Shown here one piece after another: positions 12,250-23,618 of a stretch of DNA of 30,763 nt. Below the pieces are notes generated by a model. It was not told where the DNA came from and did not search any database. It saw nothing but the letters and a program-made list of their open reading frames with translations. The DNA is from a virus. Taxonomy: Duplodnaviria; Heunggongvirae; Uroviricota; Caudoviricetes. Location of the stretch: the IMG/VR virus record IMGVR_UViG_2718218434_000001. One strand, written 5' to 3'. Position 1 is the stretch's first letter. Each line of letters opens with the position of its first letter. Both the position numbers and the translations under genes were made by a program.

Positions 12250-13299
12250 GTGCGGGTATTACTTCGACCTGTTCTGGTACCGGAACTCGGGCTGGTGGTC
12301 GTTAAGCCGGGCCGTGAATCCATGCCGGTATTCCACAATACCCGGGTACTGGTGGAGCCGGAACCGAAAAGCATGCGTAATCTGCCGTCCGGGGTCGTTC
12401 CTGCCGTTCGCCAGCCGCTGGTGGAAGACAAAACATTGCTGCCGTTTTTCAGTAACGCACGGGTAATTCGTGCTGCTGGTGGTGCTGGTGCATTGTCTGA
12501 CTGGCTGTTGCGCCATATTAAATCCTGCCAGTGGCCACTCGGCGATTATCATCACAGCGAAACCGTTATTCACCGTTATGGTACCGGCGCAATGGTGTTG
12601 TGCTGGCACTGCGACAACCAGCTGCGTGACCAGACATCCGAATCACTCGAGCAACTTGCTCATCAAAACCTGTCAGCATGGATGATTGACGTCATCGGTC
12701 ACGCAATAAGCGGTACGCAGGAGCGTGAATTATCTCTGGCTGAATTATCCTGGTGGGCGGTCCGCAATCAGGTGGCGGACGCGCTACCGGAAGCGGTATT
12801 ACGTCGCTCGCTGGGATTACCAGCGGAAAAAAACTGCTCGGTGTACCGCGAAAGCGACATCGTACCGGGAGAGCAGACCGCCACCAGCATATTGAAACAG
12901 CGCACAAAAAATCTTGCACCGTTGCCTCACGCCCACCAGCAACAAAACCCATCACAGGAAAAGACGGTGGTAAGCATCACCGTTGATCCAGAGTCTCCGG
13001 AATCTTTCATGAAGCTGCCTAAACGTCACCGTTGGGTTAAGGAGAAATACACACGCTGGGTTAAGACACAGCCGTGTGCTTGCTGCGGTATGCCAGCCGA
13101 CGATCCGCATCATCTGATTGGTCACGGGCAGGGCGGAATGGGAACCAAAGCACATGATCTCTTTGTGTTGCCTTTGTGCAGAAAGCATCACGACGAGTTG
13201 CATACGGATACCGTGGCATTTGAAGAGAAGTATGGCTCCCAACTGGAGCTGATTTTTCGATTTATCGATCGCGCGCTGGCAATTGGTGTGCTGGCCTAA
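12250..13299 (+). CDS. ydfU: DUF968-family protein YdfU-like with C-terminal Cys/His (HNH-like) cluster
   Basis: 349-aa ORF, GTG start preceded by GGAGG; C-terminal CACCG...HHLIGHG...CRKHHDELH motif; position immediately upstream of Q as in nin regions. Confidence 0.7.
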   Translation: MRVLLRPVLVPELGLVVVKPGRESMPVFHNTRVLVEPEPKSMRNLPSGVVPAVRQPLVEDKTLLPFFSNARVIRAAGGAGALSDWLLRHIKSCQWPLGDYHHSETVIHRYGTGAMVLCWHCDNQLRDQTSESLEQLAHQNLSAWMIDVIGHAISGTQERELSLAELSWWAVRNQVADALPEAVLRRSLGLPAEKNCSVYRESDIVPGEQTATSILKQRTKNLAPLPHAHQQQNPSQEKTVVSITVDPESPESFMKLPKRHRWVKEKYTRWVKTQPCACCGMPADDPHHLIGHGQGGMGTKAHDLFVLPLCRKHHDELHTDTVAFEEKYGSQLELIFRFIDRALAIGVLA

Positions 13300-13316
13300 T
13301 TTTGTGGAGTAAGTTG

Positions 13317-13693
13317 ATGCGTGATATTCAGATGGTTCTTGAGCGTTGGGGGCATGGGCGGCTAATAATCATGAAGATGTGACCTGGTCGTCCATTGCCG
13401 CCGGTTTTAAGGGATTAATTCCTTCAAAAGTAAGATCTCGTCCGCAATGCTGTGACGATGACGCGATGATCATTTGTGAATGTATGGCTCGCCTGAAAAA
13501 AAACAACAGCGATTTACATGATTTATTGGTGGACTATTATGTCGGCGGCATGACTTTTATGGCGCTTGCACGTAAGCATGGGCGATCTGATTGTTGGGTT
13601 GGCAGGATGCTCCAGAAAGCTGAGGGCGTAGTGGAGGGCATGCTGATGGTGTTGGATCTCCGATTGGAGATGGATGCTGATTGTTCGAAATAA
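13317..13693 (+). pseudogene. Late antiterminator Q (Q82/QuuD-like), N-terminal frameshift at a G5 tract
   Basis: ATG at 13317 with GGAG RBS encodes [11 protein letters not shown] then stops after 21 codons; the rest of Q ([15 protein letters not shown]...) continues in the -1 frame from 13346 with no ATG; frames join at G run 13348-13352. Confidence 0.6.
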
Positions 13694-13699
13694 TTAAAG

Positions 13700-13790
13700 G
13701 AAAAGTTGCTGTCTGATTTTCATTAGTCTAACATTTTAAATGTTGGAATCGCAACGTAGTTATTATCATATAACAGCTTGTTTCCTGATT
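13700..13790 (+). promoter_or_regulatory. Candidate late promoter (pR'-like) / qut region downstream of Q
   Basis: TTGGAA ... TATCAT-like hexamers about 45 bp upstream of a strong terminator; by analogy with the lambdoid pR'-tR' arrangement; not verified. Confidence 0.3.
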
Positions 13791-13793
13791 TAG

Positions 13794-13821
13794 CCAGCCT
13801 CCCCAAAGGCTGGTTTTTTTC
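13794..13821 (+). terminator. Rho-independent terminator (tR'-like): CCAGCC-loop-GGCTGG + T7
   Basis: Perfect 6-bp stem followed by TTTTTTT, seen in sequence. Confidence 0.65.
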
Positions 13822-13848
13822 TAATAAGTATCATTTCGGGTGGGGATT

Positions 13849-14373
13849 TTATTGTTTAACCCATAATAGTTCATTGACATTGAATCCCAACTTTTGAGCG
13901 GTACGCACATAGTCTGCTTTTACATTATCTGGAATAGTTTGGGTCCTTGCCAGAATCCATAGGTATTCTCTGTTCGGACCACTGACAAGAGCATACTTAT
14001 ACTCATCATCCAGCTTGATTACATTATAGCCACCATAGAAGGGGCCAAAAAACGAAACTTTCAACGCTGCAGTTTTAGTATCTCCAGTAAAGTATGCTTT
14101 ACCTTCGCTCTCGCTCCATTTGTTTTTCGTTGGATCGTATCCACGGTTAAGTACGCGAATCCCTCCGTCGTTCCGTTTTTCATAAGTAGCGCTGACCTGT
14201 TCCAGACCACGTTCGAACCAGTTCTCGAGGCGAGCTATTTCATACCATTTTCCGAGGTAGCGGTTGGCGTCAAAATTTGTAATCGGCTGCACACCTTTAG
14301 GTGGTGTCGGGGCCTTACATGCTATAAGAGTGAAAGAGAGTGCAATGCCAGTCAACACAGGCCATAACTTCAT
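13849..14373 (-). CDS. blc: Outer-membrane lipoprotein Blc-like bacterial lipocalin
   Basis: Lipoprotein signal with lipobox (LIAC) and lipocalin motifs (NFDANRYLGKWYEIARL, KVSFFGPFYGGYNVI) matching recalled Blc. Confidence 0.85.
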   Translation of the reverse strand: MKLWPVLTGIALSFTLIACKAPTPPKGVQPITNFDANRYLGKWYEIARLENWFERGLEQVSATYEKRNDGGIRVLNRGYDPTKNKWSESEGKAYFTGDTKTAALKVSFFGPFYGGYNVIKLDDEYKYALVSGPNREYLWILARTQTIPDNVKADYVRTAQKLGFNVNELLWVKQ

Positions 14374-14565
14374 AATAAATCCTGTACTTTTGATAGTTGA
14401 GAGTAAGTATGAAAGATAGATGAGTACGACCGATCACTTAAAGAACTTTCCTACTATATTAGGAATAGTCAATAACAGAAAAATTGTCAGTGATGAAGCC
14501 AGAAAGGCAATTTAGTCCGTGCACTACAAAGTTTATGTGTTAATGAATTAGTCAAGGGGGAGGAA

Positions 14566-15525
14566 ATGATAAAAAAACCTGTGATTGGGATCAGCGGTTG
14601 TTTGGGCGGTTCTGCTGTTCGTTTTGATGGTGGTCACAAAAGAGATGACTTTTTAATGGACAAATTAGTGGAATGGGTAACATTCAGACCAGTATGTCCG
14701 GAAATGGCTATAGGGCTGCCAGTTCCGCGTCCTGCTCTACGACTTGTGCGCTCGAAGCAAGGAAATATACGGATGTGTTTCAGCCACGACCAGAATGAGG
14801 ATGTGACAGAGAGAATGACAGAGTTTAGTCGTTCTTATATGGACAAATTAAAGGATGTATCGGGGTTTGTGGTTTGTGCTAAATCTCCCAGCTGTGGCAT
14901 GGAGCGCGTGCGTGTCTATGATGAAAATGGTAATCGAGGTCGTAAAGATGGAGTGGGACTATTTACGAGCACTTTGATGGAAAAGTTTTCCTGGCTACCG
15001 GTTGAAGAGGATGGGCGATTACATGATCCAGTGCTTCGTGAGAATTTTATTGAAAGAGTTTTTGCTTTGCATGAGCTCAATCATCTTTACAAGGAGAAAT
15101 TATCAAGAAGAGAGTTATTAGCTTTTCATAGTCGTTATAAGCTTCAGTTGTTGGCGCATAGCCAGGCAGGCTATAAAGATATGGGACCATTTGTGGCTGC
15201 AATACACGAGTGGGCGGACCTTGAATCATACTTTGAGGTGTATCGTGATAATCTGATGGCGATTCTCAGAAAACCAGCATCACGTAAAAATCACACGAAT
15301 GTGCTGATGCATATACAGGGGTATTTTAGTAATTACTTAAGTACACGCCAGCGTAAAGAGTTGAGCGAGGTTATACTTAACTATCGCTTTGGCACATTGC
15401 CTCTTCTTGCGCCGTTGACTCTGCTGAAGCATTATCTGGGTGAGTATCCTAATGATTACTTGCTTACACAGAATTACTTCGATCCCTATCCGGAAGAACT
15501 GGCTCTAAGACTGATGGTGAATTAA
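14566..15525 (+). CDS. DUF523 (TudS-like Fe-S thiouracil desulfidase family) fused to DUF1722 (YbgA-like) protein
   Basis: N-terminal GISGCLGGSAVRFDGGHK with additional conserved Cys (CPE, SPSCG) typical of DUF523; strong GGGGGAGGA RBS. Confidence 0.7.
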   Translation: MIKKPVIGISGCLGGSAVRFDGGHKRDDFLMDKLVEWVTFRPVCPEMAIGLPVPRPALRLVRSKQGNIRMCFSHDQNEDVTERMTEFSRSYMDKLKDVSGFVVCAKSPSCGMERVRVYDENGNRGRKDGVGLFTSTLMEKFSWLPVEEDGRLHDPVLRENFIERVFALHELNHLYKEKLSRRELLAFHSRYKLQLLAHSQAGYKDMGPFVAAIHEWADLESYFEVYRDNLMAILRKPASRKNHTNVLMHIQGYFSNYLSTRQRKELSEVILNYRFGTLPLLAPLTLLKHYLGEYPNDYLLTQNYFDPYPEELALRLMVN

Positions 15526-15999
15526 CTGTATGCGATATCATCTGAAAGTGATGAGTTCCTGTATGCAGGATATTTACAATCGTAAAAACTACGCTATGAT
15601 GCCCATAGTGTCAGTTTGTATAAAAATCCTGTTCACGCTAAAGAAAACATTGAGATGCAATTTAATGTTGGTAAACATACCAGCCCCAAAAGATTTTATT
15701 CAATCTGTTTTTATATGAAGATATTTCAAGTGAATATTAAGAGCATATAATATTATTATTGCACGCAGCTATTATAATATAACAGATTAGTTTAATGATT
15801 TGTTTTTTGTGAGTTAAACACATGGTTTTATAGTTGTGATGCAATGAGATTTTCCTTATTGTTGAACTGGCGAATATTGATTTTCCACCTATACTTACCT
15901 GGTGTAACCCCAATGATATCAGGTGGATAATATGCCATACATATGTTCTATCATTTTGGTGTTGAACTCGTTTGTTGTCCGAATTGGTAAAGAAGATAT

Positions 16000-16644
16000 T
16001 TGTTTAAAAAAGGAAATGCTGTCCTCATTGAATACAATTTAAAAGATCTTTTTTCGTCAAATACAGATCATCTAATGATCGTAGATGTTGAGGAGAAAAC
16101 AGTTAATGATTTCTTTAAAAACTACACACTCTCACCTTTTTCTGTAAGAAGGTTTTATCCGTCATACTTGATAGTAGAATGTGAAGATTTTTCATTGTTA
16201 AGGAACTTGGTTGCATGCTTGAATTGTGATAGCAAAACCGTGGATGTAGTTAGAAATCAAATATCACTTGCATGTCTTGCTGTCTTATCTTCAGAGAAAA
16301 TAGTGCAAAGTTTTTTGTTCGGAAGTCTTAATAGCTTAGGTTGTAAAGTTAAGGCTATTATTCACTCGGATATCTCAGCGTCATGGAGACTTTGTGATAT
16401 ATCTTCAAGATTATATATGAGCGAGAGTTTGTTAAAAAGAAAATTAAAAGACGAAGGATTATCGTTTAGTAAATTAATTCTTGAAGAACGAATGATGATG
16501 GCGCAAAGATTATTGATCTACAGTAACCATACTGTCGGCAAGGTGGCGGGAATATGCGGGTATGACAATGCATCATATTTTGTAAGTGTTTTTAGAGGAT
16601 ATTTTGGTGTGCCTCCGCACCAATATTTATCAAGATTTTCTTAG
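16000..16644 (+). CDS. AraC-family transcriptional regulator (AppY-like); N-terminus uncertain (TTG start or truncated)
   Basis: C-terminal AraC HTH region (GYDNASYFVSVFRGYFGVPPHQY); preceded by a very AT-rich ~280-bp region. Confidence 0.65.
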   Translation: MFKKGNAVLIEYNLKDLFSSNTDHLMIVDVEEKTVNDFFKNYTLSPFSVRRFYPSYLIVECEDFSLLRNLVACLNCDSKTVDVVRNQISLACLAVLSSEKIVQSFLFGSLNSLGCKVKAIIHSDISASWRLCDISSRLYMSESLLKRKLKDEGLSFSKLILEERMMMAQRLLIYSNHTVGKVAGICGYDNASYFVSVFRGYFGVPPHQYLSRFS

Positions 16645-16892
16645 AAGATATGATGTGATGGCATTTTATAAAGTTATTTTTTGAAGTGTAAGATTATACG
16701 ATATTTTTAGCTACGCTAGAATAATTGCTGGCGTTTTTCTTTTTGAATAGATGTTCGGGCCTTACGCTAATGTAACTTCTTTCCTTCTTCGAACCAAACC
16801 GTGTACACCATCCGTTATCTGCGGAGGTGATCTTACCCAGCAATAGTGGACACGCGGCTAAGTGAGTAAACTCTCAGTCAGAGGTGACTCAC

Positions 16893-17192
16893 ATGACAAA
16901 AACAGTATCAACCAGTAAAAAACCCCGTAAACAGCATTCGCCTGAATTTCGCAGTGAAGCCCTGAAGCTTGCTGAACGCATCGGTGTTACTGCCGCAGCC
17001 CGTGAACTCAGCCTGTATGAATCACAGCTCTACAACTGGCGCAGTAAACAGCAAAATCAGCAGACGTCTTCTGAACGTGAACTGGAGATGTCTACCGAGA
17101 TTGCACGTCTCAAACGCCAGCTGGCAGAACGGGATGAAGAGCTGGCTATCCTCCAAAAGGCCGCGACATACTTCGCGAAGCGCCTGAAATGA
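16893..17192 (+). CDS. insE: IS3 transposase OrfA (InsE)
   Basis: HTH-containing orfA translation [29 protein letters not shown]... within IS3. Confidence 0.85.
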
Positions 17193-18055
17193 AGTATGTC
17201 TTTATTGAAAAACATCAGGCTGAGTTCAGCATCAAAGCAATGTGCCGCGTGCTCCGGGTGGCCCGCAGCGGCTGGTATACGTGGTGTCAGCGGCGGACAA
17301 GGATAAGCACGCGTCAGCAGTTCCGCCAACACTGCGACAGCGTTGTCCTCGCGGCTTTTACCCGGTCAAAACAGCGTTACGGTGCCCCACGCCTGACGGA
17401 TGAACTGCGTGCTCAGGGTTACCCCTTTAACGTAAAAACCGTGGCGGCAAGCCTGCGCCGTCAGGGACTGAGGGCAAAGGCCTCCCGGAAGTTCAGCCCG
17501 GTCAGCTACCGCGCACACGGCCTGCCTGTGTCAGAAAATCTGTTGGAGCAGGATTTTTACGCCAGTGGCCCGAACCAGAAGTGGGCAGGAGACATCACGT
17601 ACTTACGTACAGATGAAGGCTGGCTGTATCTGGCAGTGGTCATTGACCTGTGGTCACGTGCCGTTATTGGCTGGTCAATGTCGCCACGCATGACGGCGCA
17701 ACTGGCCTGCGATGCCCTGCAGATGGCGCTGTGGCGGCGTAAGAGGCCCCGGAACGTTATCGTTCACACGGACCGTGGAGGCCAGTACTGTTCAGCAGAT
17801 TATCAGGCGCAACTGAAGCGGCATAATCTGCGTGGAAGTATGAGCGCAAAAGGTTGCTGCTACGATAATGCCTGCGTGGAAAGCTTCTTTCATTCGCTGA
17901 AAGTGGAATGTATCCATGGAGAACACTTTATCAGCCGGGAAATAATGCGGGCAACGGTGTTTAATTATATCGAATGTGATTACAATCGGTGGCGGCGGCA
18001 CAGTTGGTGTGGCGGCCTCAGTCCGGAACAATTTGAAAACAAGAACCTCGCTTAG
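17189..18055 (+). CDS. insF: IS3 transposase OrfB (InsF), DDE integrase-type catalytic domain
   Basis: orfB in -1 frame overlapping orfA end, typical IS3-family organisation. Confidence 0.85.
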
Positions 18056-18095
18056 GCCTGTGTCCATATTACGTGGGTAGGATCAAGGTGAGGCT

Positions 18096-18311
18096 ATGAA
18101 ATCCATGGATAAGTTAACAACGGGCATCGCCTACAGCACCTCTGCAGGCAGTGCTGGCTACTGGTTTTTACAGTTGCTCGATAAAGTCACGCCCTCACAG
18201 TGGGCGGCAATAGGTGTATTGGGTAGTCTGGTATTTGGCATGCTGACGTATCTGACAAACCTTTATTTCAAGATTAAAGAAGACAGGCGTAAGGTTGCGA
18301 GAAGAGAGTAA
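18096..18311 (+). CDS. Class II pinholin (phage 21 S-like, 71 aa) with dual-start MKSM motif
   Basis: Translation [24 protein letters not shown]...RKVARRE matches recalled S21-type holins; RBS partly formed by the IS3 target duplication. Confidence 0.85.
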
Positions 18312-18315
18312 TCCA

Positions 18316-18867
18316 ATGACTCAAGACTATGAACTGGTTGTGAAAGGAGTTCGCAATTTTGAGAATAAAGTGGCGGTAACTGTAGCCTTACGGGACAAAA
18401 AACACTTTGACGGTGAAATTTTTGACCTGGACATCTCGCTGGACCGTGTTGAAGGTGCCGCGCTGGAGTTTTATGAGGCAGCAGCCAGAAGGAGCATCAG
18501 ACAGGTCTTCCTGGATGTTGCTGCCGGGTTATGTGAAGGGGATGAGCAGTCGCCGGAAAAGCGCCCCATAATTTTAGAGGCGCAGAATGTGTGGATAACC
18601 TACAAAGGAAAGCTACCGGGAAGAATTACTGGTTCTCTGAAGACGCCACCGACGGCATTGCGGTCAGAAAAAGATGATATTGAATCGCCCATTGAAAAAC
18701 TGGAGGGCAGCGTCGCTGATCTGAATAAAAAATTGTCGGTGCTGATTCCTTCTGAAGATGAAAAAAAACGCCGCGATGAGCAGTTTGCGGCGTTTTACGA
18801 TTATTGCATTGAAGTTACTCGCAGGAATTTTGTGAAGATTTTTGAGGAGGGTAAATCTCTTCAGTAA
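18316..18867 (+). CDS. Hypothetical protein (183 aa) inserted between holin and endolysin
   Basis: ATG at 18316 with purine-rich RBS, overlapping holin stop region; no recognised family. Confidence 0.5.
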   Translation: MTQDYELVVKGVRNFENKVAVTVALRDKKHFDGEIFDLDISLDRVEGAALEFYEAAARRSIRQVFLDVAAGLCEGDEQSPEKRPIILEAQNVWITYKGKLPGRITGSLKTPPTALRSEKDDIESPIEKLEGSVADLNKKLSVLIPSEDEKKRRDEQFAAFYDYCIEVTRRNFVKIFEEGKSLQ

Positions 18868-19188: not shown

Positions 19189-20216
<1,028 letters not shown>

Positions 20217-22692: not shown

Positions 22693-23187
22693 ATGGATCG
22701 AGAGTTAAAAAATCTGACGCTGAATATCAGTCAACTGGCGGCATTGTCAGGTGTACATCGCCAGACTGCTGCGGCAAGGCTGCAAAATCTACCCGTTGCA
22801 GGGGGGCATGAAAGCAACCTCAAGCTTTATCGGGTGGTTGATATTGTGTCGGCATTTCTGGCATTACCACCGCCGGTTGCAGAAGGCGAAATGGACGCGC
22901 ATGAGCGCAAAGCCTGGTATCAGTCTGAACGTGAGCGTCTTAAGTTCGAACAGGAAACGGCACAACTCATTCCGGCCAGTGATGTCAGACGGGAGTTTGC
23001 CATCTGGGCAAAAGCGGTCGTGCAGGTGCTGGAGACATTACCGGATATTCTTGAACGTGACTGCGGTCTGCAGCCTGCCGCTGTGAGCCGTGTTCAGTCC
23101 ATTATTGATGATCTGCGCGATCAGATAGCCCTGCGGGTGACTGAAGCAGGTGCGGATGATGAGGAGGAATTACAGCAGGAGGAGTAA
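22693..23187 (+). CDS. nohA: Terminase small subunit (Nu1/NohA-like) with N-terminal HTH
   Basis: Translation MDRELKNLTLNISQLAALSGVHRQTAAARLQ...; GGAG RBS; acidic C-terminus. Confidence 0.7.
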   Translation: MDRELKNLTLNISQLAALSGVHRQTAAARLQNLPVAGGHESNLKLYRVVDIVSAFLALPPPVAEGEMDAHERKAWYQSERERLKFEQETAQLIPASDVRREFAIWAKAVVQVLETLPDILERDCGLQPAAVSRVQSIIDDLRDQIALRVTEAGADDEEELQQEE

Positions 23188-23618
23188 TGCTGAATCAGGA
23201 AACCGCAAAGGCAGCACGAACCGATTCAGGTTATATCCTTCGCGCACCGAGACGAATGCGGGTTGCTGATGCCGTTGCTCAGTATATGCGGGTGCGTAAC
23301 CGCTGGTTCAGCGTGATGGCGGGGCCGTCTGTGCGCGTGAATGAATGGTTCAGCGCGTATGCGATGGCGGGTATGGCTTACAGCCGTGTGTCGACCTTCT
23401 CCGAGGATTATCTCCGCGTAACTGACAACAAGGGGAAAACGCACGATGTGCTGACCGGAAGTGATGACGGTCGCCACAGCAACACGTCTCTGGCGTGGGG
23501 GGCTGGCGTGCAGTTTAACCCGACCGAATCCGTGGCCATTGACCTTGCTTATGAAGGTTCCGGCAGTGGTGACTGGCGCACTGACGGTTTCATCGTGGGT
23601 GTCGGTTATAAATTCTGA
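23187..23618 (+). pseudogene. Lom/Ail-family outer-membrane protein remnant (C-terminal ~110 aa fused to unrelated N-terminal ~25 aa); deletion junction
   Basis: C-terminus ...SVAIDLAYEGSGSGDWRTDGFIVGVGYKF matches recalled lambda Lom end; no signal peptide; start overlaps Nu1 stop (TAATG). Confidence 0.6.

Follow-up and report, generated by a model that had tools for sequence, protein, structure and literature searches.

A probable pseudogene of a Q21/QuuD-family antiterminator, frameshifted by one base in a G homopolymer, in a defective Qin-like prophage of E. coli

The window, by which we mean the whole stretch of 30,763 nucleotides that was analysed, is a Qin-like lambdoid prophage lying at ydfJ of E. 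coli. Its gene order runs int, exo, the dicB region, cI/cro-like genes, a DUF4209 gene, hokD, rem, ydfU and Q in the first part, followed by genes for a Blc-like lipocalin, YbgA, an AraC-type regulator, holin, lysozyme and Rz, and then by cspI, pinQ and ydfJ (Table 1). Q occupies the position characteristic of a lambdoid late cassette, with the ydfU/nin region before it and a short leader, an intrinsic terminator and the late/lysis genes after it. The slot between Q and the lysis cassette is the one in which stx is located in Stx phages. The lipocalin and YbgA-family cargo found in this slot (13849-15525) is also present in the isolated phages 1H12 and IdasGreatGrand (loci L007 and L009).

Table 1 Features of the Q gene and of the surrounding prophage, with coordinates given as positions in the window.
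Feature	Coordinates	Strand	Remarks
Q antiterminator, putative pseudogene, whole (Q21/QuuD family)	13317..13693	+	377 nt, versus 378 in intact relatives
Q 5' fragment	13317..13382	+	21 codons: 11 authentic Q residues and 10 out-of-frame, then TGA
Q 3' fragment, -1 frame	13346..13693	+	115 codons from TTG 13346; residues 12-125 of Q
G5 homopolymer, 1-bp deletion site	13348..13352	+	G6 in intact Qin-type alleles; GGGGAG in quuD, 434 and 1H12 alleles
Leader, presumed PR'/Q-loading region	13694..13791	+	98 nt; near-invariant in the 125-aa allele class
Intrinsic terminator, presumed tR'	13792..13822	+	9-bp GC-rich stem, 6-nt loop, T7 tract
Blc-like lipocalin (cargo)	13849-14373	-	
YbgA-family gene (DUF523/DUF1722; cargo)	14566-15525	+	
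AraC-type HTH regulator (cargo), frameshifted	~15932-16644	+	T4 to T3 at 15996-15998
IS3, intact	16829..18085	+	10 bp upstream of the holin start codon; AGG target duplication
Class II holin essQ	18096-18311	+	Late/lysis gene, would depend on Q
Lysozyme	19189-19722	+	Late/lysis gene, would depend on Q
Rz-like gene	19719-20216	+	Late/lysis gene, would depend on Q
Terminase-lom fusion ORF	23187-23618		Junction near 23292

The Q gene opens with an ATG at 13317, preceded at a distance of 7 nt by the Shine-Dalgarno sequence GGAG (13306-13309, + strand), which is invariant across all intact homologues in the alignment. According to the sequence and the list of open reading frames, this frame ends after 21 codons at a TGA (13380-13382), and in the -1 frame an open stretch of 115 codons extends from TTG 13346 to a TAA at 13691-13693. 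The homopolymer where the reading frame is lost consists of exactly five Gs. In the intact allele, six Gs span codons 11-13 (TGG-GGG-GCA), and the best E. coli matches to 13250-13850 all span 602 nt, against 601 nt in the query. When the Q gene was aligned with intact relatives, as had been recommended as a check, the sole difference was one 1-bp gap inside the G run: the relatives read TTGGGGGGCATGG and the window reads TTGGGGGCATGG. Addition of one G to the run results in a 125-aa protein identical to WP_001204787.1, which is annotated as 'antiterminator Q family protein' in the relatives. The original prediction had described a 21-codon frame with a ribosome-binding site, a remainder of Q continuing in the -1 frame from the G run, and a full-length Q restored by a single G, and all three points proved correct. 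The lesion is a deterministic feature of the sequence and not a statistical one.

The repaired 125-aa protein was matched by the Pfam family PF06530 (Phage_antitermQ) over profile positions 1-118 of 118, with an E value of 7e-51 and a score of 171.6 bits, above the gathering cut-off of 26 bits, and no other family was matched in the Pfam scan. PF06530 is also recorded on the 115-aa fragment. In a phmmer search against the PDB, the only protein retrieved was Q21 (6P18 and 6JNX, E = 5.2e-9), residues 8-90 of the repaired Q being aligned with residues 20-103 of Q21, and the alignment crosses the break (LERWGAW versus LELWGAW). Over 120 aa, the repaired protein is 86% identical to QuuD of K-12, and intact copies of Q are present in the isolated phages 434, 1H12, IdasGreatGrand and mEp332. 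Since PF06530 was assigned to the Q21/Q933W family by Yin, Kaelber and Ebright (10.1101/651190), the earlier designation of the gene as "Q82/QuuD-type" holds for QuuD and is wrong for Q82. Membership of the Q82 family was rejected, PF06530 being the sole Pfam match and all of the PDB matches being to Q21. The possibility that intact homologues actually begin at the TTG of the second frame, which would have overturned the reading of a broken gene, was not borne out: PF06530 aligns from residue 1, and the Q21 alignment spans the break. The conserved domain takes in the 11 residues that precede the break, so this TTG is not the natural start of the protein. An uninterrupted frame for the whole domain is missing in the window, where the 1-bp deletion leads to a stop after 21 codons. 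Judged by its sequence, the gene is a QuuD-like pseudogene of the Q21/Q933W family (PF06530), that is, a non-working member of it.

QuuD (YbcQ), encoded by the cryptic prophage DLP12 of E. coli K-12, is identical to the window allele in the first ~100 nt of its gene, including the Shine-Dalgarno sequence, save for two synonymous differences at the site of the run, where QuuD has GGA and GCG and the window allele class has GGG and GCA. The gene order is also alike, with Q followed by opposite-strand cargo and then by the holin-lysozyme-Rz cassette. A passage of PMC7918800 that cites Rueggeberg et al. 2013 places the DLP12 lysis cassette under Q-type control. However, QuuD is intact (127 aa), and its GGGGAG leaves it without the slippage-prone G6 run; its C-terminus and the leader downstream differ from those of the window, a ATATAACAG block alone being common to both leaders, and DLP12 is situated at argU, whereas the Q of the window belongs to a Qin-like prophage at ydfJ. 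The similarity to Q21 of phage 21 (162 aa; PDB 6P18, 6P19 and 6JNX) is significant yet distant, and the window copy, in contrast to Q21, is frameshifted and encodes fragments at best. Q21 is loaded, at a Q-binding element, onto RNA polymerase in a sigma-dependent pause, and its torus narrows the RNA-exit channel, stopping terminator hairpins from forming (10.1101/651190).

The leader downstream of Q is presumed to be the PR'/Q-loading region, a functional assignment that we infer from the arrangement of Q, PR' and terminator in lambdoid phages set out in 10.1101/651190. The terminator scan and folding gave the hairpin behind it a dG of -14.9 kcal/mol and a z-score of -3.1, and its T tract (13813-13819) varies between T6, T7 and T8 among close relatives. 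A scan for the sigma-70 consensus from the Q stop codon to the terminator found no promoter, the best weak candidate in the leader being TTGCTG (13706-11) separated by 17 nt from TAACAT (13729-34), and the study of Stx pR' (PMC6266700) provided no usable Q21-type site. The ATATAACAG block shared with the DLP12 leader lies at 13768-76. The invariant leader also contains a perfect 7-1-7 inverted repeat (AACATTT T AAATGTT, 13731-13745), which could be a protein-binding site or a part of the Q-loading region. In an Rfam scan of 12800-18400, the only match was RF02278 on the terminator hairpin, which scored 28.6 bits against a cut-off of 50 and was taken as spurious.

The rest of the prophage is damaged as well. 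In the fusion ORF, the first ~36 codons of the large terminase gene run directly into the sequence for the C-terminal part of Lom, and the junction marks the loss of ~20 kb with all head and tail genes in comparison with the full-length prophage of PSJ-07, a G6 relative that retains the terminase, portal, capsid and tail genes. The IS3 parts the lysis cassette from PR'; it is located inside or next to the Shine-Dalgarno region of the holin gene, and no such IS3-holin junction was found in complete RefSeq E. coli genomes. The AraC-type protein, normally 237 aa long, is cut after MPYICSIILVLNSFVVRIGKEDI by the T4 to T3 deletion, an allele found in 0 of 680 complete genomes and 0 of 30 other fetched loci; the adjacent A6 run reads A5 or A7 in other assemblies. 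Neither the 214-aa AraC fragment nor the terminase-lom fusion had a match when looked up as an exact protein. A 189-aa AraC fragment is common elsewhere, but it is produced by other lesions. Complete RefSeq E. coli genomes cover at most 72% of window positions 6000-30763 in one place. The prophage is defective, with the insertion before the holin, the morphogenesis deletion and the second frameshift, in agreement with the cryptic prophage that had been suspected from the Q lesion.

In a collection of RefSeq complete genomes, which includes neither AP027528.1 nor the source genome of the window, an 86-nt probe with exactly five Gs was found in three E. coli genomes (TW10598, E54 and JX2), and the corresponding 87-mer with G6 in 406, the share of G5 in its allele class being ~0.7%. 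A further ~3,000 complete genomes match the probe at 95-99% and carry in-frame GGGGAG or other variants, and in-frame G6 or GGGGAG is the norm in ~3,480 complete genomes. In IMG/VR, a pattern accepting either run length returned G6 in all 65 matching contigs. Sampled representatives of the remaining alleles (K-12 quuD, 434, 1H12 and IdasGreatGrand) read TGG-GGA-GCG. By this comparison of alleles, the G6 run stems from a synonymous difference in codon, GGG in place of GGA, that is peculiar to this allele class. TW10598, E54 and JX2 all have the same 1-bp deletion as the window, and PGAP labels their genes 'antiterminator Q family protein; frameshifted'. The prophages differ otherwise: in TW10598 and E54, an IS1 is inserted in blc and the lysis region is lost, whereas the window has an IS3 before the holin and the terminase-lom deletion; the JX2 prophage, unlike the window, carries an IS1A after ybgA. 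AP027528.1 has the haplotype of the window at Q, but with a ydaT-ydfU deletion.

Across 1,311 bp, G5 occurs on at least seven haplotype backgrounds, and for most of these there is a G6 twin that differs by 0-2 SNPs, which suggests either that the deletion recurs at the run or that recombination has moved G5 between backgrounds. A G7 allele was not present in any fetched locus. Other lesions of the Q gene were each encountered once, namely an A8 to A10 expansion, an interruption by an IS21-like element at nt 205 and a 5' truncation, and the overall picture is one of undirected decay of the late-regulatory module. As a separate observation, the first 47 nt of Q (13317-13363, the G6 run included) are 100% identical between the 125-aa alleles and the 120/121-aa alleles (loci L014, L025-L027, L038, L045-L047, L051 and L061-L064), the proteins of which are otherwise much more diverged, and this marks a sharp mosaic recombination boundary within the gene. 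Among GTDB representative genomes there was one match, a G6 E. coli-like Q on a 2.5-kb contig (L076, JBJEFM010000100.1) binned as a Bacillus sp. MAG, where it is probably a binning contaminant.

The original prediction had left the choice between a genuine mutation and a homopolymer error undecided, and the evidence now leans clearly towards a real, inherited and recurrent allele, G5 being found in independent assemblies. If the missing G were an error of sequencing or assembly, the true genome would have G6 and an intact Q. Such an error would fit the comparison with PSJ-07, the nearest relative (99.9% identical over 16.8 kb), from which the window differs by 27 substitutions and three indels: all three are 1-bp homopolymer deletions (G6 to G5, T8 to T7 in the T tract of the terminator, and T4 to T3), and two of them, within 2.7 kb of each other, interrupt ORFs, as expected from under-calling. 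The T3 allele of the AraC-type gene is, moreover, private to the window, and the RefSeq set of complete genomes does not include the source genome. Nevertheless, the ratio of indels to substitutions agrees with neutral decay, in which about one indel arises for every ten substitutions; elsewhere in the window, stretches of 5.2 kb and 7.5 kb have 0 indels relative to close relatives, and the long ORFs (823, 784, 595 and 431 aa) and the IS3 are unbroken, so the assembly is not generally error-ridden. Against an error there is also the occurrence of G5 elsewhere. Its diagnostic 115-aa product, as called by gene callers, was found on 12 other public contigs, which include the complete chromosome AP027528.1, five MEGAHIT- or SPAdes-style metagenome contigs and at least four Logan assemblies; the short-read-style metagenome assemblies come from different studies. 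AP027528.1, from assembly GCA_036496325.1, is 100% identical to window 13250-14560, G5 included, and is a structurally different genome: elsewhere it differs by 10 SNPs, has a deletion of 5.85 kb, lacks the IS3 and reads T4 in the AraC-type gene. The ETEC isolates TW10598 (Guinea-Bissau) and E54 (Bangladesh), which were sequenced by different groups, carry G5 in an identical IS1-disrupted context, and every G5 carrier with readable surroundings has it in an already damaged prophage. Because G5 is present on 12 other contigs and AP027528.1 has the exact haplotype in a structurally different genome, the deletion is in all likelihood real and inherited, and a sequencing error is unlikely. Comparison with its relatives thus makes it very probable that the locus is a true pseudogene of the Q21/QuuD antiterminator family, carried by a defective Qin-like prophage.

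It was also considered whether the G5 gene might still be expressed, either by a programmed or efficient -1 slip on GGGGG or as a truncated active Q started at TTG 13346. If the P-site tRNA-Gly slipped from GGG (13350-52) to GGG (13349-51), its pairing would again be perfect and the wild-type sequence would be regained. A stable RNA hairpin is predicted at 13348-13402, beginning within the G run, with GGCAUGGGCGGCU base-paired to coding sequence further downstream (MFE of the 13340-13440 fold, -35.4 kcal/mol; z-score, -2.9), and it might favour slippage at the run. However, this hairpin begins at the run and not 5-9 nt after it, and it forms equally in in-frame alleles; the site, CGU UGG GGG CAU, has no X XXY YYZ heptamer, and the upstream tRNA-Trp would need to re-pair from UGG onto UUG. 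The two-frame arrangement is not conserved, with 406 G6 genomes against three G5 genomes and isolated phages in frame, and a programmed -1 frameshift was rejected, as the original prediction had anticipated in calling it improbable: the in-frame form is the norm in complete genomes and IMG/VR contigs alike. As the frameshifted form makes up so small a share of its allele class and is absent from the 65 viral contigs, nothing has evolved to depend on recoding. With regard to the truncated product, the 115-aa ORF keeps most of the PF06530 domain, but its TTG has no usable Shine-Dalgarno sequence, just a GAG 2 nt upstream, and it would lack residues that, like the W-G-A-W motif at the break, are conserved as far as Q21. 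Continued expression by either route is therefore very unlikely.

The recurrence of G5 on several backgrounds next to G6 twins, together with the restriction of the run to the allele class with the synonymous GGG, could be taken as signs of a phase-variable contingency locus that reversibly switches late and lysis expression of the prophage. Ordinary slippage would also give recurrence on several backgrounds, however, and recombination could have spread a single G5 event over them; a run of six nucleotides is short, OFF alleles account for less than 1% of the class, G7 is missing from all fetched loci, and the one-off lesions elsewhere in Q speak of undirected decay. A phase-variable locus was rejected on the rarity of the OFF allele, the shortness of the tract and the lack of G7, and we regard it as extremely improbable. 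A broader version, in which the GGA to GGG change gave Qin-like prophages a means of turning off their late operon reversibly and at a low rate, such that lineages repeatedly silence and perhaps re-activate it and -1 slippage could supply a trickle of wild-type Q, is highly improbable too.

From these results, a course of events may be proposed for the pseudogene, the reading that we prefer. One of the six Gs in codons 11-13 was lost, and slippage during replication is the most likely cause. Ribosomes that start at the normal ATG would then stop after 21 codons, leaving the remaining 114 codons without a functional start, and no full-length Q would be expected. Because no full-length Q would be made, RNA polymerase coming from the late promoter should stop at the hairpin/T7 terminator without reaching the cargo and lysis genes, which would amount to a loss of antitermination activity. 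A rare -1 slip occurring spontaneously on GGGGG would yield a low level of protein identical to the wild type, and nothing suggests that such slippage is efficient.

The G5 allele of Q is a case of ordinary prophage decay that has already been annotated in public genomes, and it involves no new mechanism. Its import beyond annotation is small: the locus should be labelled as a frameshifted Q21/QuuD-family pseudogene in a defective Qin-like prophage rather than as two small ORFs or as a 115-aa "antitermination protein". It is predicted that SOS induction of the prophage in the window cannot drive Q-dependent expression of holin, lysozyme and Rz. The locus may serve as an example of how a domesticated prophage loses its late-gene switch, with a synonymous codon giving rise to a G6 run and the run to repeated loss of a G in nature.
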